A DNA stretch of 39,703 nucleotides from Candidatus Tayloriibacteriota bacterium (GCA_009694955.1 SIBZ01000004.1:1-39703); one strand, 5' to 3'; positions 2,873 to 38,960 are shown, counted from the first letter of the stretch. Notes: generated by a model from the letters alone, not told the origin. Made by a program: numbers and translations.

Positions 2873-2975
2873 GCTAGTATCCTTCCCCGTTCGGGGCTGG
2901 GTTGGCACAGCACTCTTTCGAGCCAGTTGCCGGAGGGTCATTGAGCCAGTACTCTATCCTCACTCTTGATATCGC
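2873..2975 (-). ncRNA. SAM-I (S-box) riboswitch aptamer
   Basis: Minus strand UAUCAAGAG..GAGG.AUAGAGUACUGGCUCAAUGACCCUCC.GGCAAC..GUGCC.AACCCAG.CCCCG-AA-CGGGG.AAGGAUA gives P1-P4, kink-turn region and a possible CUGG/CCAG pairing; lies upstream of metK. Confidence 0.92.
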
Positions 2976-4176: not shown

Positions 4177-4188
4177 GACAGAGTAATC

Positions 4189-4256
4189 AATCACCAATAT
4201 CCAACGAAAGAACGTTTCTTTTTGGTTATTGGTGTTTGGTTATTGGTGATTAGTTA
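4189..4256. repeat. Inverted heptamer cassette, CCAAT/TTGG family, copy 1
   Basis: aatcacc aatatcc aa - spacer cgaaagaacgtttctttt - ttggtta ttggtgt ttggtta ttggtga ttagtta. Confidence 0.85.
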
Positions 4257-4908: not shown

Positions 4909-5652
4909 ATGAACATACTGCGAACACGATTTAAAAAAGACATTGTGTGCGAATTTATTCCTCCCAATCGACCTTCAAACAAGGTGATTATTTTCTGTAA
5001 AGGAATGCCTGGGCTTCCTCGGTTCCCCCAGGTGTTGGAATTCTGGGCGAAAAAAGGCTACTGGGTATTTTTCCCCCGTTATCGTGGCACATGGGAAAGC
5101 GACGGCGAGTTTCTGAAGGAATCTCCCGAAAAGGACATTCTTGATGTCATCGACGAACTCCCAAAAGGATTTACCGACCTCTGGTCCGGTCGGTCCTATA
5201 AGCTATCAGCTAAAAGCTATAAGCTATTCATATTCGGCGGCAGTTTCGGCGGGCCGGCAGCAATACTCTGTTCCCGAGATCCACGTGTGACGAAAGCGGT
5301 CGCCTTCGCGCCAGTTATAGATTGGGAAGCGCCATCCGAGGAAGAACCGATGGATAAACTTGGTGCATTTATTCCGCAAGGGTTTGGACAGAGCTACCGG
5401 TTCTCACAGAAAAATTGGGACCGACTCAGCCACAACGAGTTTTACAGTCCGCTCAAAGAGTCCGATACGATTGATGGCAAAAAACTTCTCATCTTCCACG
5501 CTAAGGATGACGAATCGTGCCACTATCCCTCGACCAAAACATTCGCCGAAAAAACCGGCGCGAAACTCATCACGCTTCGCACCGGTGGCCACTTTGGCAT
5601 CTCAAAATCCATCGAACCGAGATTCTATAAAGAAATCAAGAAATTCCTCTAG
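4909..5652 (+). CDS. Alpha/beta hydrolase (prolyl-oligopeptidase-like)
   Basis: YRGTWES, nucleophile elbow GGSFGG, FHAKDD and GGH. Confidence 0.88.
   Translation: MNILRTRFKKDIVCEFIPPNRPSNKVIIFCKGMPGLPRFPQVLEFWAKKGYWVFFPRYRGTWESDGEFLKESPEKDILDVIDELPKGFTDLWSGRSYKLSAKSYKLFIFGGSFGGPAAILCSRDPRVTKAVAFAPVIDWEAPSEEEPMDKLGAFIPQGFGQSYRFSQKNWDRLSHNEFYSPLKESDTIDGKKLLIFHAKDDESCHYPSTKTFAEKTGAKLITLRTGGHFGISKSIEPRFYKEIKKFL
5196..5226. repeat. In-frame heptamer array (AGCTnnn family) inside the hydrolase
   Basis: ctataag ctatcag ctaaaag ctataag cta, read as SYKLSAKSYKL. Confidence 0.8.
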
Positions 5653-5653
5653 T

Positions 5654-5702
5654 AGTAATTTTAGCAAAGTAACCACGGCCGTGGTTACTTTGCTAAATTA
5701 CT
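5654..5702. repeat. Perfect 38-bp palindrome with no loop (REP-like or bidirectional terminator)
   Basis: tttagcaaagtaaccacgg|ccgtggttactttgctaaa at 5660-5697; contains the truB TAG. Confidence 0.85.
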
Positions 5703-6409
5703 TCTGCATCTTCGATTTTGAATTCTCCTATTCGAGTACGGCGAAGCCCCGCGAGCGTGGCGGGAACTCCAAGACGCCTTCCGAACTCTTCGGCGAGGGA
5801 GCGGATGTAGGTCCCGCTTGTGACGTCGAAGCGGACAGACACCACCACCCCGCCTCCGGCACCCCTCCTCAACTGAGGAGGGGGTGAAGAGACACCGAGA
5901 AACTCCACCGCGGTTATCTCCATCACCTTACTTGGAGTATCTACCACTTCACCGCGCCGTGCTTTTTTATACAGTGCTTCCCCTCCCCGTTTGATAGCGG
6001 AATACGCCGGAACCGGAAGCTCAAGCTTTCCTATCATTGTCTGCAGTATCTTTTCTATTTCTTCGTTTGAAAATTTCTTATCTTGAAAATTAATTGAAAA
6101 TTGGGAATTGGAAATTGGTACTTCTTGGCCAGTGATATCTCCCGTATCCGTTTTTACTCCGAGTAGTATTTCCGCCTCATATGTTTTATCGAGCTTCAAA
6201 AACTCGTGAAGTTTTTTGGTTCCGTCACCAACTCCGATAATCATAAGCCCCGTCGCCATCGGGTCCAGCGTCCCCGCATGCCCCATCTTGCGTATATTCA
6301 GCTTCTTCCTCAGTATGCGAATACAGTCAAAGGAAGTAATTCCCTTCGGCTTATCAATGAGTAGAATATGTTCGGGAAGCACAGTAGGAGTATGGTACAC
6401 TTTTAACAT
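5693..6409 (-). CDS. truB: tRNA pseudouridine(55) synthase
   Basis: DKPKGITS, GHAGTLDPMATG, PAYSAIK, GTYIRSLA and LRRTRIG; ATG at 6409. Confidence 0.96.
   Translation of the reverse strand: MLKVYHTPTVLPEHILLIDKPKGITSFDCIRILRKKLNIRKMGHAGTLDPMATGLMIIGVGDGTKKLHEFLKLDKTYEAEILLGVKTDTGDITGQEVPISNSQFSINFQDKKFSNEEIEKILQTMIGKLELPVPAYSAIKRGGEALYKKARRGEVVDTPSKVMEITAVEFLGVSSPPPQLRRGAGGGVVVSVRFDVTSGTYIRSLAEEFGRRLGVPATLAGLRRTRIGEFKIEDAEVI
5844..5884. repeat. In-frame GC-rich double-hairpin element in truB
   Basis: accaccccgcctccggcacccctcctcaactgaggaggggg, read as PPPQLRRGAGGGVV. Confidence 0.75.
6067..6120. repeat. In-frame heptamer array (TTGrrAA family) in truB
   Basis: ttgaaaa...ttgaaaa ttaa ttgaaaa ttgggaa ttggaaa ttggta, read as PISNSQFSINFQDKKFSN. 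Confidence 0.75.
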
Positions 6410-6415
6410 ATCATT

Positions 6416-6492
6416 AATCACCAATAACCAATATCCAATCACCAAGGAAGAAATGATTCTTTTTGGGTATTGATAATTGGTGCTTGGTTATT
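6416..6492. repeat. Inverted heptamer cassette, CCAAT/TTGG family, copy 2
   Basis: aatcacc aataacc aatatcc aatcacc aa - spacer ggaagaaatgattctttt - ttgggta ttgataa ttggtgc ttggtta tt. Confidence 0.88.
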
Positions 6493-9265: not shown

Positions 9266-10594
9266 ATGTCCGAACCGAAGAGACGTCTTTCAACCGAACC
9301 ATATAAAGGCGTGCGGGATTTCTATCCCGACGACTTCGCGGTGGAGAAATATATTTTCGGCGTCTGGAGCGATACCTGCCGGAAATTCGGTTATGAAGAA
9401 TACACCGCCTCCATATTGGAGCCAGCGGAACTCTACCGCGGTAAGGGGAGCGACGAAATCGTAAACGACCAGACCTACACCTTTACCGACCGCGGAGAAC
9501 GTGAAGTTACCTTGCGCCCCGAGATGACCCCCACCGTAGCACGCCTTATCGCGGGGAAACGCAAAACGCTCTACTTCCCTGTCCGCTGGTTTTCTCTTCC
9601 GAATCTGTTCCGCTATGAGCGTCCTCAGCGTGGGCGCCTGCGTGAGCACTATCAGCTGAACGCCGATATTTTCGGCGTCGCCGGCATAGACGCAGAGACG
9701 GAAATAGTTTCGCTTGCCTATGAAATAATGCATTCATTCGGCGTCGCCGACGGGAACTTTGAAATCCGTATTAACAGCCGGAAGGTGATGAATTACATCA
9801 TAGAGTACCTCCTCGGCCAGACCGGTGAGGAAGGCAAGAAAACGGCACAGCTCATTGACCGGCGGGCGAAGATGGAGAAAGAAGTATTTGAAAAAGCGCT
9901 CAGCGAACATTTGAAGGAGAAAGACGCACTCCTCCTCACACTTCTCAATTCCAAAAACTTTGCAGAATTCGTGTCGCATCTCCCGAAGGTACCCCCGCTT
10001 GAGGAGGCGCTTAAGGAAATTGATTCACTCACTGCGTCACTTGAAGCACTGGGTATCACGAACGTTGTTTTTGACCAAACGCTGATGCGCGGATTTGATT
10101 ACTACAGTGGCATCGTGTTTGAAGTATTTGATAAGAATCCGGCAAATCCCCGCTCGCTTTTCGGAGGTGGCCGCTACGATAACCTGCTCGAGTTATTCGA
10201 TGTAGAGAAAGTACCGACCGTCGGATTCGGCATGGGTGATGTGACTATCCGCGACGTACTCGAGACCTACGACTTGCTTCCGAAAAAATTCCCTTCGCCC
10301 GCGGACATCTATCTCTCCGCGTTTGATGCGAATTTCAAGAGCTCTGTAAACGATATCGCGCAAAATCTCCGCCGGGCGGGAGTCCGTGTCCTCGTAGACT
10401 ACGGAACCGGCAAGGTGGGCACGAAGGTGGCAAATGCCGACCGAGCCAAAGTTCCCTTCTTCGCGCTTATCGGCGAAGCGGAAAAAACCTCGGGACATAT
10501 CAAAGTGAAGAATTTGGAAACCGGCAAAGAAGCGATTCTCATGGAAGACAAAATCGCTGAATATATAAAAAATGCGACCTCCTCAACTCTTTAG
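9266..10594 (+). CDS. hisS: Histidine--tRNA ligase
   Basis: KGVRDF, LRPEMT, FRYERPQRGRLREHYQ, RGFDYY and GGGRYD. Confidence 0.97.
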   Translation: MSEPKRRLSTEPYKGVRDFYPDDFAVEKYIFGVWSDTCRKFGYEEYTASILEPAELYRGKGSDEIVNDQTYTFTDRGEREVTLRPEMTPTVARLIAGKRKTLYFPVRWFSLPNLFRYERPQRGRLREHYQLNADIFGVAGIDAETEIVSLAYEIMHSFGVADGNFEIRINSRKVMNYIIEYLLGQTGEEGKKTAQLIDRRAKMEKEVFEKALSEHLKEKDALLLTLLNSKNFAEFVSHLPKVPPLEEALKEIDSLTASLEALGITNVVFDQTLMRGFDYYSGIVFEVFDKNPANPRSLFGGGRYDNLLELFDVEKVPTVGFGMGDVTIRDVLETYDLLPKKFPSPADIYLSAFDANFKSSVNDIAQNLRRAGVRVLVDYGTGKVGTKVANADRAKVPFFALIGEAEKTSGHIKVKNLETGKEAILMEDKIAEYIKNATSSTL

Positions 10595-11274: not shown

Positions 11275-11350
11275 AGTTGTAAGTTGTAAGATTAAAGATT
11301 ACAGTAAGTGTGCCGCTTTACTTACATCTTAAATCATACATCTTTAATCT
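11275..11350. repeat. Inverted heptamer cassette, AGATTTA/TCTTAAA family, copy 1
   Basis: agttgta agttgta agattaa agattac ag - spacer - cttacat cttaaat catacat ctttaat ct; ends directly at the DsbA ATG. Confidence 0.85.
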
Positions 11351-12965: not shown

Positions 12966-13078
12966 TTGGTAATGATGGGTTGGGTTGGAAAGTTTCAGGT
13001 AACTTCACGGAAGATACCACGCGGTACAAAAACAGTCCAGCTTGCCTCAGCGAAGTCTTACGAAGCTGTTTTTTCTTC

Positions 13079-13108
13079 CTACTAACTACTATCTACCTAC
13101 TACTAACT
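13079..13108. repeat. Heptamer array, CTACnnn family
   Basis: ctactaa ctactat ctaccta ctactaa ct; encodes the last residues LVVGR* of the helicase. Confidence 0.8.
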
Positions 13109-16034
13109 TCTTTAGTCGGCACCATTCGCACTCCGGCTCATCGCAAAAGTCGGTCATCACACGACCGGACCAAACTGAATCAATGAGCGATTGAATTTCT
13201 GTTTTGAGTTTCTCGATATCCGCATCCGCAACCGGAAGAGAGACGATACCGCACTTCCCTTTCCTATCTGGCATCACGAATACAAGCGAAGGAACAATGT
13301 CTTTATTTTTGTATTTCGGATTGTGCTCCAAGAGGAATTTGTAGAAAATAAGCTGGCGCCAAGGGTTTCCGTCGGATGATTTGGTCTCTCCTTTAATCGC
13401 CGGAACCGTCATTGCTTCTTTGGTCTTGTAGTCGAACACGCGGACGGTGTCGCCGTCTTCAAGAACCGCGTCAAGTTTGCCGTGAACGGGCATAGTCACT
13501 TGGCCACCTTCGTACGTCCCAGAAAAGTGTCCCTCGCTCCAGCTTTCTGTAACCGCCTTCCCCGATGCGAAATGGCTTTGGAGTTCCTGAGCGATACTCG
13601 GCGCCTTTTCAAACAGTTCTGTCTTGACCGCTTCCTTTTCAAATACCGGAAGCAGTGAGCGCTCCAGGTATGCGGAAACTGAGTCCCGAAAGACCTTTTC
13701 AATAGTGCCTATACTCCGGTCGGTTTCTTCCCATATCCGTCTGAACGCTTCGTGTACCGCCGTTCCTTTCTCCGCGCTTGGCGTCGACGCTTGAGGAATC
13801 TTCAGGATACTTTGATAGAGAAACGCGCTCGGGCACGTTATGAAGTGGTTAAGCGCCGTAACGGAAAGTCCTGAATTGAGGAGCGTGGTTTTCGTGAGGT
13901 CAATAAGTTTTCGGTTGTGAGTAGAAATCCCTCCCGTCTCAGAAGATGTACTTCCTTTAAAAAAAGGAGAATGAAGACCTCCAACATCTGGAGGCAAAAC
14001 AGTCCTTTCCACACACTTCGGGTCAAGCTCATCAAGAAAACGGAGTGGCGTTTCTGTCTTTCCACCCGCAATTTCCTCCGGCACCAATACCACAGCGTGC
14101 TTCTTTGCGCGGGTGAGCGCGACATAAAACAAACGACGTGCGTCACGGATAGAATCTTCATCATCCTTTTCTTTATGCGGAAAGACGAAATACGTACCAC
14201 GTGTTCTGCCTATCCACGAACTCTCCGTTACAAACGGCAAAAAGACGTAATCAAACTCAAGTCCCTTGCTCCCATGCGCAGTCATTGCCCTGACCCGGAG
14301 TTCGGGAGAGCCGACACTTACCTTCACGCTCCGCTCCTCCGAAGAGGCTTTATAGGATAGGAGCTTCGCAAGAAGTTCTCGTGTATCGCGGATATCTCCT
14401 TCCCGTATCAGATATTCCGAGAGTTCGACAATACCGCGCCAGACTTCCATCGCGGACGGGTCTTTGACGGCGAGCGTAAGAAAGCCCGACGCTTCCGCCA
14501 AGAAGACTAGATACGCAAGCGCTCCTTCGTCGGTAAGTTTGTTCTGAAGATGCCTGAGTGCGGGGATTTTCTCCGCCACGCCTTGTTTCCCGCTCCGAAG
14601 CGCACGAATGCACTCTACACCGTTTTCAAACGGCACATCCCAGAGCCCCACCGCAATCGTCTTCGCAAGTGCCTCCGTATTGGTGGTATCCGACAGATAT
14701 TCAATCAGCGTAAAAAACAGATTACCGATGGGGTGATTAAAGATATTTATTTTCCGTTCGGAGGAAACGGGAATTTCTTTTGATTCCAAAAAACGGATAA
14801 TCCGTTCTAAATCGCGATTGGTCTTTGTAATAATCGCCATGGTGCTTTCGTTCTCTTTTTCAAGAATTGCCTGTATTTCTTTTCCTAAATACTCAAGCGT
14901 ATCGCACTCTTTCCCTGATATGAGCGCTAGCGGTTGTGGCTTTCCCCCGCCCCCTGAGGTAAGCCGGACCCGAAGATGTGTATGTTCACCTTCGCCGTAA
15001 TTGTTTTCAATCATACTGAAGGTGCTGTCGAGGAGGTGCTGATGCGAGCGGTAGTTCGTTTCAAGCGGAATACTCTTCATTCCTTTCCACGCGTTTTTGA
15101 ACCGAAGGAAGTTTTCCACGGACGCCCCCTGAAAACGGTAAATCGCCTGCTTTTCGTCGCCAACTACGAAGAGATTCGGCGAATCAAAAAAGTCGGCGAG
15201 CAAACGGATAAGCAGGTTTTGCGAATCGTTGGTATCCTGATGTTCATCGACGAGTATATAGAGAAACTTCTCCTGAAGCAGACGGAGAAGCAATGTGTCG
15301 TTCTGGAGCGCGGTGAGGAGTTCGATAATCAAGTCGTTAAAATCAATTTTCCGTTCGGCGCGTTTTCGCTTTTCATACACCTCATACACGTCGGCGAAAA
15401 GCACCGTGCGTTCGCATTTCTCTATCCGCTTCTCGGCCTCGGCTTTGAGTTTGCCTTTGGTTGGCCCGCGCGAGGAAAGAGCGTCGGGGTCGGCCTGTAT
15501 GCTCTTCTTCTCTTTCTTCGCCCCTTCACGCATCATTTCCGGCGTCAACGCTTCGCGCTTCGCGTCGCTTATGCCTCCGACTATTTTCTGTACGTAAAAA
15601 TCGGGATTACCGAATGGCCGGAGCTCCGCGAACCGTTCATCTTTCAGAATCTCACGGACGAGACTTTCTGCGTCTATGTCGGTCATCTGTATCGCCCTAT
15701 CCAGATGCGCGAAATGGTCTTTGAACTCAGCAATGATTGAGGAGGCGAAACCGTGAAAGGTGTGCAGACGCACTTCGTCAGCGCGCGAACCCATAAGGGC
15801 ACGTAGTTTCTGGCGCATCGCCTTCACTCCCGCTTCGGTAAAGGTAATCGCCAAAATCCCCGACGGTGGTGTGTCGGTCTTCCGGAGGATTTGCGCGATG
15901 CGAAGCGTAAGTACGGTCGTCTTCCCCGTCCCCGGCCCGGCGATGACCATGACGGGTCCGTCGATAGTATCGACAGCCTCCTTTTGCTTCGGATTGAGTC
16001 TGGCGTATTGTGCTTGAAATGCGCTGTCGGACAT
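13089..16034 (-). CDS. UvrD/PcrA-family SF1 helicase fused to a C-terminal PD-(D/E)XK nuclease
   Basis: AGPGTGKT, DEHQD, GDEKQAIYRFQGA, NYRS, TAHGSKGLEF, FYVALTRA; nuclease GKLD...DYKT; C-terminal Cys cluster. Confidence 0.93.
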   Translation of the reverse strand: MSDSAFQAQYARLNPKQKEAVDTIDGPVMVIAGPGTGKTTVLTLRIAQILRKTDTPPSGILAITFTEAGVKAMRQKLRALMGSRADEVRLHTFHGFASSIIAEFKDHFAHLDRAIQMTDIDAESLVREILKDERFAELRPFGNPDFYVQKIVGGISDAKREALTPEMMREGAKKEKKSIQADPDALSSRGPTKGKLKAEAEKRIEKCERTVLFADVYEVYEKRKRAERKIDFNDLIIELLTALQNDTLLLRLLQEKFLYILVDEHQDTNDSQNLLIRLLADFFDSPNLFVVGDEKQAIYRFQGASVENFLRFKNAWKGMKSIPLETNYRSHQHLLDSTFSMIENNYGEGEHTHLRVRLTSGGGGKPQPLALISGKECDTLEYLGKEIQAILEKENESTMAIITKTNRDLERIIRFLESKEIPVSSERKINIFNHPIGNLFFTLIEYLSDTTNTEALAKTIAVGLWDVPFENGVECIRALRSGKQGVAEKIPALRHLQNKLTDEGALAYLVFLAEASGFLTLAVKDPSAMEVWRGIVELSEYLIREGDIRDTRELLAKLLSYKASSEERSVKVSVGSPELRVRAMTAHGSKGLEFDYVFLPFVTESSWIGRTRGTYFVFPHKEKDDEDSIRDARRLFYVALTRAKKHAVVLVPEEIAGGKTETPLRFLDELDPKCVERTVLPPDVGGLHSPFFKGSTSSETGGISTHNRKLIDLTKTTLLNSGLSVTALNHFITCPSAFLYQSILKIPQASTPSAEKGTAVHEAFRRIWEETDRSIGTIEKVFRDSVSAYLERSLLPVFEKEAVKTELFEKAPSIAQELQSHFASGKAVTESWSEGHFSGTYEGGQVTMPVHGKLDAVLEDGDTVRVFDYKTKEAMTVPAIKGETKSSDGNPWRQLIFYKFLLEHNPKYKNKDIVPSLVFVMPDRKGKCGIVSLPVADADIEKLKTEIQSLIDSVWSGRVMTDFCDEPECEWCRLKKLVVGR
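13925..13972. repeat. In-frame 48-bp monomer of the AAATCC...GAAT double-hairpin element
   Basis: aaatccctcccgtctcagaagatgtacttcctttaaaaaaaggagaat aligns with the reverse complement of 17656-17702. Confidence 0.75.
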
Positions 16035-16055
16035 ATGGGAGAGTATAACAAAAGA

Positions 16056-16085
16056 AGCTTATAGCTGTTAGCTGATAGCTCTTAG
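16056..16085. repeat. Heptamer array, AGCTnnn family
   Basis: agcttat agctgtt agctgat agctctt ag. Confidence 0.8.
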
Positions 16086-16173
16086 GCAGACAGTAACTAT
16101 TGACATTGAATCGTAAAGGTGGTTAGATGAGCCTCGAAACGTTCGAACATCAACAACTCAACCCCCGAAATCT

Positions 16174-16593
16174 ATGCCTACTGAAATGCTACTCTTCTCT
16201 GTCTGGTGCATCCTTGGAATTGTGTTTATGGTCGCCGGTGGTGTTTTCCTGTTTGGTCCCACCAAAAAACCGAAACTGGTGCTTTGGTTCATTTACACAT
16301 TCACAATCTTCTTAACGGCCTTATGTGCATGGTATCTGGGTCACGGACATCCGAGCTATGGAAGATTCGCCTCGGTTATGTTGACGCGGGGAGACCCATT
16401 GGCAATTGCCGGAATGTCGATGCAGACAGGCAAAGACGGAGAACCCGAAGCCTACTTCTTGTTCTTTGCCAGGGAAAATAAGCCCCCGCTCACTATAAAG
16501 CTACTCGCGGCGGATATCGTCAACCCGGATGGCCTCAAACTGGGAGGCGTCCTACCAATGCTGGTGGACGGAAAATGGAGATTCCGATTTTAG
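16174..16593 (+). CDS. Hypothetical membrane protein
   Basis: Two N-terminal TM helices; TTGACA upstream at about 16100. Confidence 0.65.
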   Translation: MPTEMLLFSVWCILGIVFMVAGGVFLFGPTKKPKLVLWFIYTFTIFLTALCAWYLGHGHPSYGRFASVMLTRGDPLAIAGMSMQTGKDGEPEAYFLFFARENKPPLTIKLLAADIVNPDGLKLGGVLPMLVDGKWRFRF

Positions 16594-16740
16594 CAAGTTG
16601 CTCTGTGAAGAAAAAAACTGCCGGAGACTCCAGCTTCTTCACGCAGGAGCGTAGCTCTGAACGAAGGAAGGCGGTAACACCCGTTTCGAAACGGCGTTAC
16701 CGTCTACCACTCAGGCGAAGATTCAAAGGTTAGTCACATC

Positions 16741-16772
16741 CGCTCCGGCCCACAAAGCCGGAGCGAACTTTT
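16741..16772. terminator. Terminator hairpin
   Basis: cgctccggc-ccacaaa-gccggagcg followed by a T tract. Confidence 0.7.
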
Positions 16773-17635
16773 TATAGGAGTGCTTTTTCGATAAGCGGAG
16801 CAACATCGATAGTTGAAGCAGGCTCTGCAATGCTGTTCGAGAGGAACAGTTTTGAGTAATTTTTCTGCAAACGCGCGACACCCTCGGGCAGAAGTCCGTG
16901 AGTTACAACCGCAACCATCTCTTTCGGACCGTATTTTTTACACGCTTCCTCAAAGCGAATCATCGTCCCTCCCGTTTCCACAAGGTCATCAACGACGGCA
17001 ACGGCCTTCCCCCTAAGACTACCGAACAAGGCTTCGTCCTCGGCAAGGTGGACCGTATAGGAGTCAACACGGGTCTTCTGGACACCTTGTAGCCCTTTCG
17101 TGCGCTTAGTGTGCCCCATATCGGGTGCGACGAACACTGCATCGGGATATTCTTTGCGGACAGCCGAAAGAAGCGTTTCGTGAGCCGAAACGGATTGGAA
17201 TGGAAGCCCACTCAACCACGCTCCGTCGTGGAAATGCGGGTCGATGGCAAATATCTTTTTCACGCCGTAGTACGACACGAGTTTCCGGAGGATATCTTCG
17301 GCGGTTATGGTTTCCCCTGCTCCGTGGAGCTTATCCTGCATACTGTACGGAACATACGAAAAAAACACTTCAACGTCCCTCTTCCCTTCCCGCTTCAGAA
17401 TGGAAAGAATTATTTCAAGTTCCAAAAGTCCGTCATTCGGATTCGGCGCGCCGGAGTGAAGCACGACAAATCGCCCTTCCTTCGGAAGGTCGGGGAGCTT
17501 TACAAACACCTCCCCGTCCGGAAACGCATTTTTCCCATCTTTATTTTTCCCAAGCGGAACAAGCCGGAATTCCTTTCGGTTCTCGAAATAGACGCGAAAA
17601 TGCTGTGCCGACGTCGTGAGAATAAGATTAATCAT
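16772..17635 (-). CDS. prs: Ribose-phosphate pyrophosphokinase (PRPP synthetase)
   Basis: FPDGE, PYSMQDK, IDPH, APDMG and VDDLVETGGT; ATG at 17635, since the longer ORF start runs through a repeat. Confidence 0.85.
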   Translation of the reverse strand: MINLILTTSAQHFRVYFENRKEFRLVPLGKNKDGKNAFPDGEVFVKLPDLPKEGRFVVLHSGAPNPNDGLLELEIILSILKREGKRDVEVFFSYVPYSMQDKLHGAGETITAEDILRKLVSYYGVKKIFAIDPHFHDGAWLSGLPFQSVSAHETLLSAVRKEYPDAVFVAPDMGHTKRTKGLQGVQKTRVDSYTVHLAEDEALFGSLRGKAVAVVDDLVETGGTMIRFEEACKKYGPKEMVAVVTHGLLPEGVARLQKNYSKLFLSNSIAEPASTIDVAPLIEKALL

Positions 17636-17655
17636 ATTTATCAGGCTCTTTCTGA

Positions 17656-17752
17656 ATTCTCCCTTTCCTAAAGGGAGCACTCCGTCTTCGGAGGAGGGAT
17701 TTAAATCCTCCGTCCTCGAAAACTCGGACACCTCCTTTAGGAAAGGAGGAAT
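17656..17752. repeat. Head-to-head dimer (BIME-like) of a double-hairpin element
   Basis: attctccctttcctaaagggag...gggattt|aaatcctcc...cctcctttaggaaaggaggaat. Confidence 0.85.
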
Positions 17753-17778
17753 AAGATACTGACACCTACTTCTCTTTC

Positions 17779-17801
17779 CTAAAAGCTAGAAGCTATAAGC
17801 T
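17779..17801. repeat. Heptamer array, AGCTnnn family
   Basis: ctaaaag ctagaag ctataag ct, just after the rpoD stop. Confidence 0.7.
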
Positions 17802-17805
17802 TCCC

Positions 17806-19017
17806 CTAATATCCTTGGAGTTTTTTCGCTTTCTCGTGCTGGCGGATTTTCTCGTGCGCCTTGGCCTCAATCTGGCGGATGCGTTCACGGGTCACGCCGA
17901 ACTTCTGGCCGACTTCTTCGAGCGTGTGGGTAATGCCATCGAGAAGACCGTGACGGAGCTCCAAAATTTTTCGTTCTTTTTCGGACAGGTCGCCGAGGAT
18001 TTCTTTCACTTGGTCGCCGAGGATTCGGCGGGACGATTCCTGGTCGGGAGAAAGGATTTTGTCGTCGTGGAGAAAATCTCCGAGTGTCGACTTGCCGTCG
18101 TCTCCTTCGTCGCCCACAGGGGACTCGAGCGACACGGTGTCTTGGTCAATTTTTTCGATTTGGTATACCTTATCCGTTTCGATACCCATTTCAACACCGA
18201 TTTCTTCGGGAAGCGGGTCACGTCCGAGGTCCTGCGAGAGACGGCGTACTACCTGCTTGTACTTCGCAATCGTTTCCACCATATGCACCGGCACCCGAAT
18301 CGTGCGTGACTGGTCGGCGAGCGCGCGGGTAATCGCCTGGCGAATCCACCAGGTCGCGTAAGTTGAAAACTTATATCCTTTGGTCCAGTCGAACTTATCG
18401 ACCGCCTTGAAAAGACCCAGGTTCCCTTCCTGAATGAGGTCGAGAAGCGTGAGGTCGGGCGAGCGTCCGACGTATTTTTTGGCAATCGAGACGACGAGAC
18501 GCAAGTTCGCGCGGGCAAGCAGGTTTTTCGCTTCCGTGTCGCCTGCCTGAATGCGCTTCGCGAGTTCCTTTTCGTCCTTGGCGTTGATGAGCGGGTACTG
18601 TCCGATTTCCTTCAAATACATCTGAATCGAATCATAAGATGATTCGCTACTCTTCCCCAGATAGACATTTTTCTTGCCGTGTGGCTCTTCCACCTCCTTT
18701 TCGAGCATGCCTCCTCCCTCGAGCACATCGATGCCCGCAGTCTGGAATTTTGCGTACAGCTCATCGAGGAACATAATGTCCTCCTCGATGGTGGGAAACT
18801 CTTTCAGAATATCGTTGTAGGTGATAAACCCACGGTCCTTGCCTTTGGCGACAAGCCTGTCCGTCCGTATGTCGCGTTCTTTCCCACGGGAAAGTTTTAC
18901 CGGCTGTTCCTTCGGCGAGACTTTCTTTTTCGTCTGAGGCTTCTTTGAGACCTTTGGCGCAACCTTTTTCTTCTTTTTCTTGTCTTTCGCGCGAGGCTTT
19001 TTTGACTTTTTGGCCAT
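17806..19017 (-). CDS. rpoD: Primary sigma factor RpoD/SigA
   Basis: [40 protein letters not shown] and TRERIRQIE. Confidence 0.97.
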
Positions 19018-32173: not shown

Positions 32174-32860
32174 TTATTTTCTGCGCTTCAGTTTCCACTC
32201 GTTGATTTTTGCCTGATGACCGGAGAGAAGGATTTTAGGGACGCGGAATTTCTTGCCTTTGTAGGAAAAGATTTCAGGGCGGGTGTAGACATCGGGGCTG
32301 GCAACACGACTTTCCTCGCGCGAGTTGAAATCGCCAAGCACGCCTTCCACTTGGCGCGCGATTACGTCAATCATCAGCATTGCGGGGAGTTCCCCGCCGG
32401 TGAGTACGAACGGACCCACGGATACCTCCTCAACCTTGAATGCCTTCTTGACTCGTGCATCTATTCCCTCATACCGCCCGCAGATAATGATGATGTCTTT
32501 CTGTTTCGCGTACTTCACTCCACTTTCGTTGGTGAACTGCTTCCCGCTCGGGCTTAGCCAGACAAGAGGAGCTTTTAGCTTATAGCTTATAGCTTTTAGC
32601 TTTTTCGCCATTCTCACATTTTTAAGAATGTCAGAATATGCTTTTTCGATGGCGCGGATAACTGGTTCGGCTTGGATAACCATGCCGGGACCGCCGCCGT
32701 ACGGAGCGCGGTCAATTCGTTTCCATTTATTTTCCGCAAAATCGCGCGGGTTGTAGAACTTCACCTGTATCTTTTTGTCCTCAATGGCGCGCTTCAAAAT
32801 CGACTCCCCGAGATAGGAGTCAAATGCGTGCGGGAATAAGGTTATGATATGGAAATTCAT
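32174..32860 (-). CDS. trmD: tRNA (guanine-N1)-methyltransferase
   Basis: PYGGGPGMV, LSPSG, CGRYEGIDAR, VLTGGELPA and LLSGH; ATG at 32860. Confidence 0.97.
   Translation of the reverse strand: MNFHIITLFPHAFDSYLGESILKRAIEDKKIQVKFYNPRDFAENKWKRIDRAPYGGGPGMVIQAEPVIRAIEKAYSDILKNVRMAKKLKAISYKLKAPLVWLSPSGKQFTNESGVKYAKQKDIIIICGRYEGIDARVKKAFKVEEVSVGPFVLTGGELPAMLMIDVIARQVEGVLGDFNSREESRVASPDVYTRPEIFSYKGKKFRVPKILLSGHQAKINEWKLKRRK
32570..32637. repeat. Composite in-frame insert in trmD: heptamer array plus palindrome
   Basis: agctttt agcttat agcttat agctttt agctttt (32570-32604) and attctcacatttttaagaatgtcagaat (32610-32637), read as SDILKNVRMAKKLKAISYKLKA. Confidence 0.8.
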
Positions 32861-32931: not shown

Positions 32932-32942
32932 AGTCTTTTCTG

Positions 32943-32977
32943 AAAGCTAAAAGCTAAAAGCTAGAACCTAAAAGCTA
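32943..32977. repeat. Heptamer array, AGCTnnn family
   Basis: aaagcta aaagcta aaagcta gaaccta aaagcta; last unit carries the khpA TAG. Confidence 0.85.
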
Positions 32978-33292
32978 TATCTTGAGGTCTTCCATCGCCT
33001 CGTCCACGCTCTTCGTGGTTGAGCGTTCCGGGCGGGTTCCCCCTTCCGGCTCGTTGATTTTGAGATTTACGCGCGCATTGTTCTTCATACCGACGACTCG
33101 GAGGAGCGTGCGGATTGCCTTTGCAGTGTTGCCTGAGCGACCGATAACTTTACCCATATCAACCGGGCTAATCGAGAGTGTCAGAAGCACGCCCATTTCG
33201 TCGACGGTTCGGTTGATTTTGACATCATCCGGAGCGTCTACAAGCGCCTTCACTACGTATTCGAGAAACGCGACATCGCTTTCTTGTGCCAT
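32975..33292 (-). CDS. khpA: KH-domain RNA-binding protein KhpA (YlqC)
   Basis: DMGKVIGRSGNTAKAIRTLL; lies directly after rpsP. Confidence 0.92.
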   Translation of the reverse strand: MAQESDVAFLEYVVKALVDAPDDVKINRTVDEMGVLLTLSISPVDMGKVIGRSGNTAKAIRTLLRVVGMKNNARVNLKINEPEGGTRPERSTTKSVDEAMEDLKI

Positions 33293-38835: not shown

Positions 38836-38866
38836 AGATTTACGAAGTATGATTTAAGATTTACGA
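38836..38866. repeat. Heptamer array, AGATTTA family
   Basis: agattta cgaagta tgattta agattta cga, just upstream of the smc ATG. Confidence 0.7.
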
Positions 38867-38960
38867 AAACTGAAAAGACGGCTTAATCATAGCAATTTAC
38901 CGACAAACAAAAAAGCGCCGCGACGACAGCGCTTTTCGCAAATAAGTAAAGTCTCCGCAC

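Follow-up and report, generated by a model that had tools for sequence, protein, structure and literature searches.

A double-hairpin repeat found in genes and spacers of a Patescibacteria genome and its structural tie to DUF559 nuclease genes

How can the same double hairpin sit in frame inside a helicase gene and also, as a head-to-head pair, between two other genes? The question is raised by a 39.7-kb contig (C31, analysed over its entire length of 39,703 nt and called the window hereafter) of G000, a genome of the Patescibacteria (Candidate Phyla Radiation, CPR) with 868,699 bp in 52 contigs and 88.6% completeness. We compared G000 with 20 congeners and with other related genomes, all of them given by G numbers. 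Unit A (13925-13972, + strand, 48 nt) lies within an open reading frame (ORF) of 981 aa for a UvrD-helicase/PD-(D/E)XK protein (13089-16034, - strand), whose nearest named relatives are in "Candidatus Nomurabacteria/Parcubacteria" assemblies. Units B (17656-17702, - strand, 47 nt) and C (17703-17752, + strand, 50 nt) together form a 97-nt head-to-head pair, an imperfect palindrome (17656-17752), in the spacer between rpoD and a prs-like gene. The element is a new long-form, double-hairpin variant of the BoxC/PIT/triplex-motif (TM) kind of repeat, with behaviour like that of Rickettsia palindromic elements (RPE). We regard its units as probable members of a lineage-restricted family of selfish, structure-forming repeats, in which pairs are DUF559 cassettes that have no gene and singles are solo or decaying ends.

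Are the three units one element? A sequence-only reading of this DNA had said so, and its unit sequences and coordinates were correct. Although A and the reverse complement of B agree at only about 35 of 47 aligned bases, both belong to one family. We built a profile hidden Markov model (HMM) from 20 units picked by regular expression and then a covariance model, R1. Unit A is recovered with nhmmer at E 4.7e-9 and by R1 with 53.8 bits (E 2.1e-9, whole genome), and R1 scores B and C at 54.7 and 69.7 bits. The best match of A is a copy inside gatB (C16 10536-10583; 42/48 bases, blastn E 1e-7). HMM and R1 return the same set from G000, namely 29 units at 18 loci, arranged as 11 head-to-head pairs and 7 singles, that is, 26 copies beyond the three in the window.

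The units, of about 50 nt, share one order: head, variable hairpin, two or three bases, pyrimidine/purine hairpin, and a final AAT that often continues as (T)AAAGAG or TCAGAA. Two types are distinguished by the head, AAATCCCTCC in T1 and AAATCCTCC in T2, and by the pyrimidine/purine hairpin, CTCCCTTT-nnn-AAAGGGAG in T1 and CCTCCTTT-nnn-AAAGGAGG in T2. The variable-stem hairpin has a conserved loop, GAAGAC, TAAGAA or TCAGAA. All pairs in G000 (11/11) join a T1 unit to a T2 unit, head to head. In the window, B is of T1 type, with its head at 17702-17693, the variable hairpin TCCG-AAGA-CGGA at 17692-17681, the hairpin CTCCCTTT-AGG-AAAGGGAG at 17677-17659 and AAT at 17658-17656, and C is of T2 type, with the head AAATCCTCC at 17703-17711, the variable hairpin at 17712-17729, the hairpin CCTCCTTT-AGG-AAAGGAGG at 17731-17749 and AAT at 17750-17752. 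Folding, computed with Watson-Crick pairing only, gives the pair -22.6 kcal/mol (z -3.9 and -3.6 against shuffles). Unit A is a single T1-type unit, running head to tail on the + strand, with the head AAATCCCTCC at 13925-13934, a weakened variable hairpin at 13935-13948, a decayed pyrimidine/purine hairpin at 13951-13969 and AAT at 13970-13972. Its fold is weak (-4.8 and -4.0 kcal/mol, z -2.1 and -1.0), and the helicase copy is therefore a partly decayed member of the family.

To what kind of repeat do the units belong? Holder 2015 (PMC4666352) describes a class II layout, in which one strand carries in succession a pyrimidine arm, the complementary purine arm and a third block that is a mirror image of the latter. 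The head block of the CPR units is the mirror image of the purine arm, and on the purine-rich strand the three blocks read CTCCCTTT / AAAGGGAG / GAGGGATT in T1 and CCTCCTTT / AAAGGAGG / GGAGGATT in T2. Among 92 distinct units, 13 of them without a perfect hairpin, an AGGAGG core is accompanied by a TCCTCC head in 30/33 units and an AGGGAG core by TCCCTC in 26/29, with no cross-type case; head type matches hairpin type in 56/62 T1/T2 units. A third type with a GGGGG core mostly has a CCCCC head (3 exact and 7 with one mismatch, n=11). Stronger support for the third block than this agreement is a generic scan for a pyrimidine arm, a loop, a purine arm and then a mirror block at most 30 nt away, which in G000 finds 95 three-block motifs, belonging to six or more sequence families, vs 0-3 in five shuffled genomes. 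The mirror symmetry would let a single strand fold back into a three-stranded structure, and a triplex may form on the unit strand.

The likeness to BoxC, PIT and TMECO repeats extends further. According to Holder 2015 (PMC4666352), these repeats also have three consecutive blocks of class II on one strand, as T1 and T2 units do; close inverted pairs in E. coli always combine two types (A with B), as T1 is combined with T2 here; there is no strand bias; copy number varies widely among close relatives; and the sites that bear an element are hot spots at which strains differ. The differences are as clear. The TMECO pattern given there is CCCTCNCCC N3-6 GGGNGAGGG N3 GGGNGAGGG, which by inspection the CPR units do not fit; the second TMECO spacer is 3 nt, whereas that of the CPR units holds a covarying hairpin of its own; the ITxF search rule takes loops of 1-6 nt, whereas the first loop here is 3-5 nt and the second spacer 13-21 nt; and TMECO copies are always intergenic in E. 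coli MG1655, whereas CPR units are in frame at 5/18 loci (TMECO and ITxF details from PMC4666352). The CPR sequence family is, moreover, restricted to one genus and a few relatives: R1 units occur in 16/20 same-genus genomes, with copy numbers from 0 to at least 99, in 3/40 genomes from other families of the order and in 0/150 of a phylum-wide sample, and the exact T2 hairpin pattern had no match in viral contigs.

First noticed some thirty years ago, BoxC/PIT/TM repeats have stayed unexplained since the 1990s; we know of no mechanism for their spread and of no gene associated with them. Is there a gene associated with the CPR units? The suggestion in the sequence-only reading that such repeats flank DUF559 endonuclease genes proved sound. 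DUF559 is present in 23/61 related genomes, and at 27 DUF559 loci in these genomes three-block motifs lie within 150 nt on both sides at 18, on one side at 3 and on neither at 6. Motif density is 7.26 per kb within 150 nt of DUF559 vs 0.30 per kb elsewhere in the same loci (24-fold), and the motifs come from several unrelated sequence families. R1-type units abut both ends of the gene, within about 100 nt, at 9 loci. Outside the genus, DUF559 occurs in 3/3 genomes with the repeat vs 4/37 without, a comparison that is indicative only, as kin are not independent.

The tie is closest in G014, G017 and G020, where the DUF559 gene stands exactly at the centre of a pair, at the point where the two heads meet. 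The layout is a reverse unit ending in GGAGGGATTT, followed by (T)ATG, the DUF559 gene, ...ATT, and a forward unit that runs from AAATCCTCC to GGAGGAATAA. One head (GGAGGGATTT) serves as the Shine-Dalgarno sequence immediately in front of the ATG, and the other unit provides the last codons and the stop. The product is a DUF559 (Vsr-like PD-(D/E)XK) endonuclease of about 120-160 aa. G000 has one full DUF559 gene (C27 5083-5508), bracketed by inverted three-block motifs of another family, and also a DUF559-like gene with a unit in frame. In the G000 segment C27 5083-7250 the DUF559 gene is followed by a gene for a TatD-family nuclease, then by a T1+T2 pair and then by a Y1 (IS200-like) transposase-like gene in convergent orientation; the next large ORF has another pair in frame.

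In E. coli K-12, too, a DUF559 gene stands beside a canonical copy: ycjD ends in CCCTCTCCC-TGA, and a canonical TMECO lies 170 nt downstream, the sole match in 10 kb. The name BoxC has its origin at fabI/envM. The gap between ycjD and fabI (NC_000913.3, 1351040-1351830) also contains part of the ycjD 3' end for a second time, with the canonical TMECO after it, and this arrangement looks like the remnant of another DUF559 cassette. Our literature search, whose coverage excluded subscription journals, found among the matches listed no paper linking DUF559 to triplex/BoxC/PIT repeats or to ycjD, and nothing relevant on in-frame palindromic elements in the Candidate Phyla Radiation or on REPIN/RAYT in Patescibacteria. 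The DUF559 tie is a concrete mechanistic lead and apparently an unpublished one.

How, then, might the units have come to lie in both kinds of site? Two units bracketing a DUF559 gene would be the parent cassette, T1 and T2 would be its two unlike ends, and the rule that pairs combine T1 with T2 would follow from this. The 97-nt pair in the window would be the cassette minus its gene, standing to the parent as a MITE (miniature inverted-repeat transposable element) does to its own, and single units such as the helicase copy would be solo or decaying ends. DUF559 may be the enzyme that moves the units, and gene-less pairs may be mobilised in trans. Copies would persist where the harm is small, that is, in short spacers within operons and, where the frame stays open, in flexible protein loops and linkers, the coding copies being translated as Gly/Ser/Pro-rich peptides. 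MITEs such as Correia elements are likewise gene-less derivatives, in which only the inverted ends of a longer element with a gene are joined, and pairs and gene-carrying cassettes (G014, G017, G020) have their inverted ends in common. The parent here differs in having no known transposase, and no target-site duplication can be defined.

As the sequence-only reading had claimed, the element occupies coding and non-coding positions: in G000 it is intergenic elsewhere and is read through in frame in five ORFs, those for the helicase, GatB, an M24 peptidase, a DUF559/MTES_1575-like protein and a 561-aa protein. The first four are Pfam-supported, and the 561-aa ORF has no Pfam match above cut-off. 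Unit A corresponds to helicase aa 688-704, with the - strand translation HSPFFKGSTSSETGGIS, and lies in the linker between UvrD_C, which ends at about aa 650, and PDDEXK_1, which begins at aa 723. We considered a single reading frame for all coding copies and rejected it; it is true of the five G000 copies, and other genomes have other frames and orientations (some of the spanning ORFs there being putative).

GatB carries a whole pair in frame, translated DSPFLKGSTPSEAGGILKSSVLGDSDTSFKKGGI. The pair occupies one site in G000, G020 and G015, between HLEEDTATS(L/I)H... and ...SL(V/I)DFNRAG, and the same site is empty and uninterrupted in 13 congeners. In a GatB tree computed with the insert removed, the three filled genomes do not form one clade (approximately unbiased test, p 0.014), and G015 groups with the empty G013 as its sister (support 100/99). 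The filled state therefore reflects one of three histories: insertion more than once at a single codon, precise loss on several occasions, or transfer of the local region. We sought a target-site duplication at the GatB site and found no defensible one, filled and empty sites being too diverged. The gatB site of G003 has another insert, 20 aa long and rich in CGCGGATA. Genes for Y1 transposase-like and DUF559 proteins recur directly beside gatB in various congeners (for example G007 C37, G012 C8, G013 C8, G018 C2 and G019 C19; G001 C9, G017 C116 and G020 C30), and the gatB neighbourhood is therefore variable.

The helicase linker contains a whole pair in G020 and weak copies in G011 and G012, and in G008 a pair lies elsewhere in the gene, inside the nuclease domain. 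In the five closest pair-free orthologues (G014, G001, G017, G008, G002) the linker has no R1 match and the 16-aa segment encoded by unit A is not kept. The linkers of two congeners contain other repeats, a periodic stretch of (ACGAACT) type in G014 and a pair of CTTACAAGGTC(C/G)GACC palindromes in G017; with other repeats at the same sites in congeners, these positions are therefore hot spots for several small repeat kinds.

That one palindromic repeat occupies spacers and is also read in frame within intact genes is reminiscent of the RPE, which were reportedly described by Ogata et al. in 2000. RPEs likewise lie between genes and in frame in intact, often essential genes, to which they add short peptide loops. 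They differ in being 100-150 bp long, and they are not known to have a three-block mirror layout or an associated nuclease gene.

Several observations speak against gene-less cassettes moved by DUF559. Because T1 and T2 are copied as wholes, the agreement among the three blocks counts for no more than about two independent changes. Neither a target-site duplication nor a young insertion could be defined, and the helicase linker, in which two fixed motifs stand 58-78 aa apart with unalignable sequence between them, is too variable to reveal a clean 48-nt insertion. No T1/T2-flanked DUF559 gene was found in the 88.6% of G000 that is estimated to be present; the pair closest to the C27 DUF559 gene lies some 900 nt away from its stop (about 960 nt from the Pfam match). 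Arrangements around DUF559 vary: the gene is at the pair centre in three genomes, flanked by a pair and a unit in G002 and G009, and faced by unit tails in G011, G012 and G027, and the strict motif is missing near 6/27 loci. Within the genus, G008 and G015 have the repeat and no detected DUF559, and G006, G007 and G018 have DUF559 with only 0-1 units. We also know of no DUF559 biochemistry.

Some of these points would suit a spread by another route, through replication slippage, recombination at non-B DNA or an enzyme yet to be named, with DUF559 as a passenger or as a homing-type gene that targets pair centres. The varying arrangements and the DUF559-free G008 and G015 fit this, as does the position of the gene in three genomes, exactly at the TTT|AAA of the pair centre, and Holder 2015 (PMC4666352) ties such motifs to local genome rearrangement with no associated mobile gene. 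Yet the use of one unit as the ribosome-binding site of DUF559 and of the other for its last codons and stop looks co-adapted, the presence of T1+T2 in all 11 pairs is simply explained by the two ends of a cassette, and the motifs at DUF559 loci come from unrelated families. We consider spread by such a route unlikely and retain the reading of pairs as gene-less DUF559 cassettes.

Could the intergenic copies instead be functional RNA above all, hiding a ribosome-binding site or stabilising operon mRNA, with the coding copies as accidents? Most intergenic pairs do lie between co-directional genes, 6-10 nt past a stop, and in 3/9 of them (C6 31493, C6 47403, C28) a terminal GGAGG or GGGAG stands 8-12 nt before the next start. 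But the two orientations relative to transcription are about equally frequent, 4 and 4 among the 8 intergenic pairs that we oriented, and pairing is nearly all Watson-Crick on both strands. In 69 units from 20 genomes aligned to R1, changes on both sides occur at 6/6 base pairs of the variable helix and G-U is rare; overall, 87.6% of cells are paired vs 44-69% with slid partners, a figure that leans towards structure because fitting to the model produced the alignment. That G-U pairs are nearly absent and that both orientations are used point to a constraint on the units that would act at the DNA level or symmetrically on both strands, and not on one-strand RNA. Furthermore, no Rfam family matched the units at gathering thresholds over the window, copy number ranges among congeners as given above, and the same units lie in frame in genes and around DUF559. 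A primary role as RNA is accordingly very doubtful.

Similarly improbable is a REPIN/RAYT-type origin, in which a Y1 (IS200-like) tyrosine transposase would move the pairs, as REP doublets, on single-stranded DNA: PF01797 genes occur in 19/21 genomes of the genus, two Y1 genes of G000 have HUH and Tyr motifs, one of them 52 nt from the C27 pair, and doublets with decaying singles resemble REPINs, but the 119.5 kb surrounding 39 Y1 loci contain only 12 units (4 at one G000 locus), Y1 genes occur in the repeat-free G007, G016 and G019 and none was found in G020 with its 42 units, the G000 Y1 protein scores 28 bits vs a cut-off of 80 with the NCBIfam RAYT model, and the units are without the GTAG/CGTC tag of REPs (PMC3733652), having AGTAC, AGCAC or GGTG before the variable hairpin by inspection, with no pattern search made. 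A RAYT/Y1 link had been tried as a candidate and was set aside, adjacency being weak across the 39 Y1 loci, and searching PDB sequences with the Y1 protein of G000 brought up nothing of use. A REP is a 20-40-bp palindrome with a GTAG or CGTC tag at one end, and REP, BIME and REPIN-RAYT systems resemble the CPR family in their short repeats that form hairpins, in inverted doublets that are likely what replicates, in singles left behind as remnants, and in an enzyme gene of their own, present in single or low copy, with repeats on its flanks. The CPR family differs in the flanked gene, here a DUF559 nuclease and not a Y1 transposase, and in the missing tag.

If pairs are indeed gene-less DUF559 cassettes, the consequences may be wider. 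We put forward, tentatively and with less confidence than the cassette reading itself, that DUF559 genes bracketed by three-block units are an unrecognised class of small mobile elements without a classical transposase, that BoxC/PIT/TM repeats from E. coli ycjD to the CPR are its gene-less derivatives, and that these reshape the linkers and loops of proteins, both through insertions that keep the frame and through repeated gain or exact loss at one and the same codon. The long double-hairpin variant brings three traits together: in a minimal genome, the routine in-frame colonisation of essential genes, among them those for GatB, the helicase-nuclease and TruB; at one codon, a pattern of gain or loss at odds with the gene tree; and a structural link, precise in its layout, with a DUF559 endonuclease gene. 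This tie gives a testable candidate enzyme with a defined substrate. For CPR annotation and alignment, short Gly/Ser/Pro-rich inserts in proteins may stem from repeat DNA and not be protein features specific to a lineage.

Strain comparison bears on how stable the sites are. A close strain is present in contigs from two lake-water runs of another study. There, 13912-14019 has the same length and a diverged sequence, and 17636-17778 is replaced by 103 other letters, the flanks aligning in both cases. This shows that element-bearing spots differ between strains, and nothing more.

The remaining features of the window can be given briefly. The prs-like phosphoribosyltransferase gene (16772-17635, - strand) is downstream of the pair, its ATG at 17635 being 20 nt past the pair, and the stop of the sigma-70 gene rpoD (17806-19017, - strand), at 17806, is 53 nt from it. 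The prs-like gene had no match at E<=1e-20 in the 20 congeners, and a comparison of orthologous rpoD / prs-like spacers therefore failed; the gene adjoins rpoD in the close strain from the two public runs. It may be an accessory gene.

Three looser relatives of the units had been suggested at 5844, 10578 and 20915, and only the first stood up. At 5844-5889 (- strand) lies a real three-block motif of another sequence family (CCCTCCT / AGGAGGG / GGGTGGT), inside truB (5693-6445, - strand), where it is translated in frame as SSPPPQLRRGAGGGVV within the TruB_N domain. The sites at 10578 and 20915 are merely hairpins of CCTCC/GGAGG type, with no R1 match at E<=1 and none in the three-block scan.

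Spacers at gene boundaries in the window also contain low-complexity repeats with a 7-nt period, of the types (AGCTWWT)n, (CTACTWA)n, (TTGGTNA)n and ATCTTAAATCATAC. They are found at 5189-5226, 16056-16083, 17765-17802, 32570-32611 and 32933-32984, and further at 423-462 and 13073-13112, 4184-4251 and 6425-6492, and 11317-11350 and 38836-38869. They often form inverted pairs that bracket genes, for example directly upstream of the helicase start and at the helicase stop. Finally, a SAM riboswitch (RF00162) lies at 2874-2975 (- strand) with 45.5 bits against a gathering score of 44.4, the sole Rfam match in the window.

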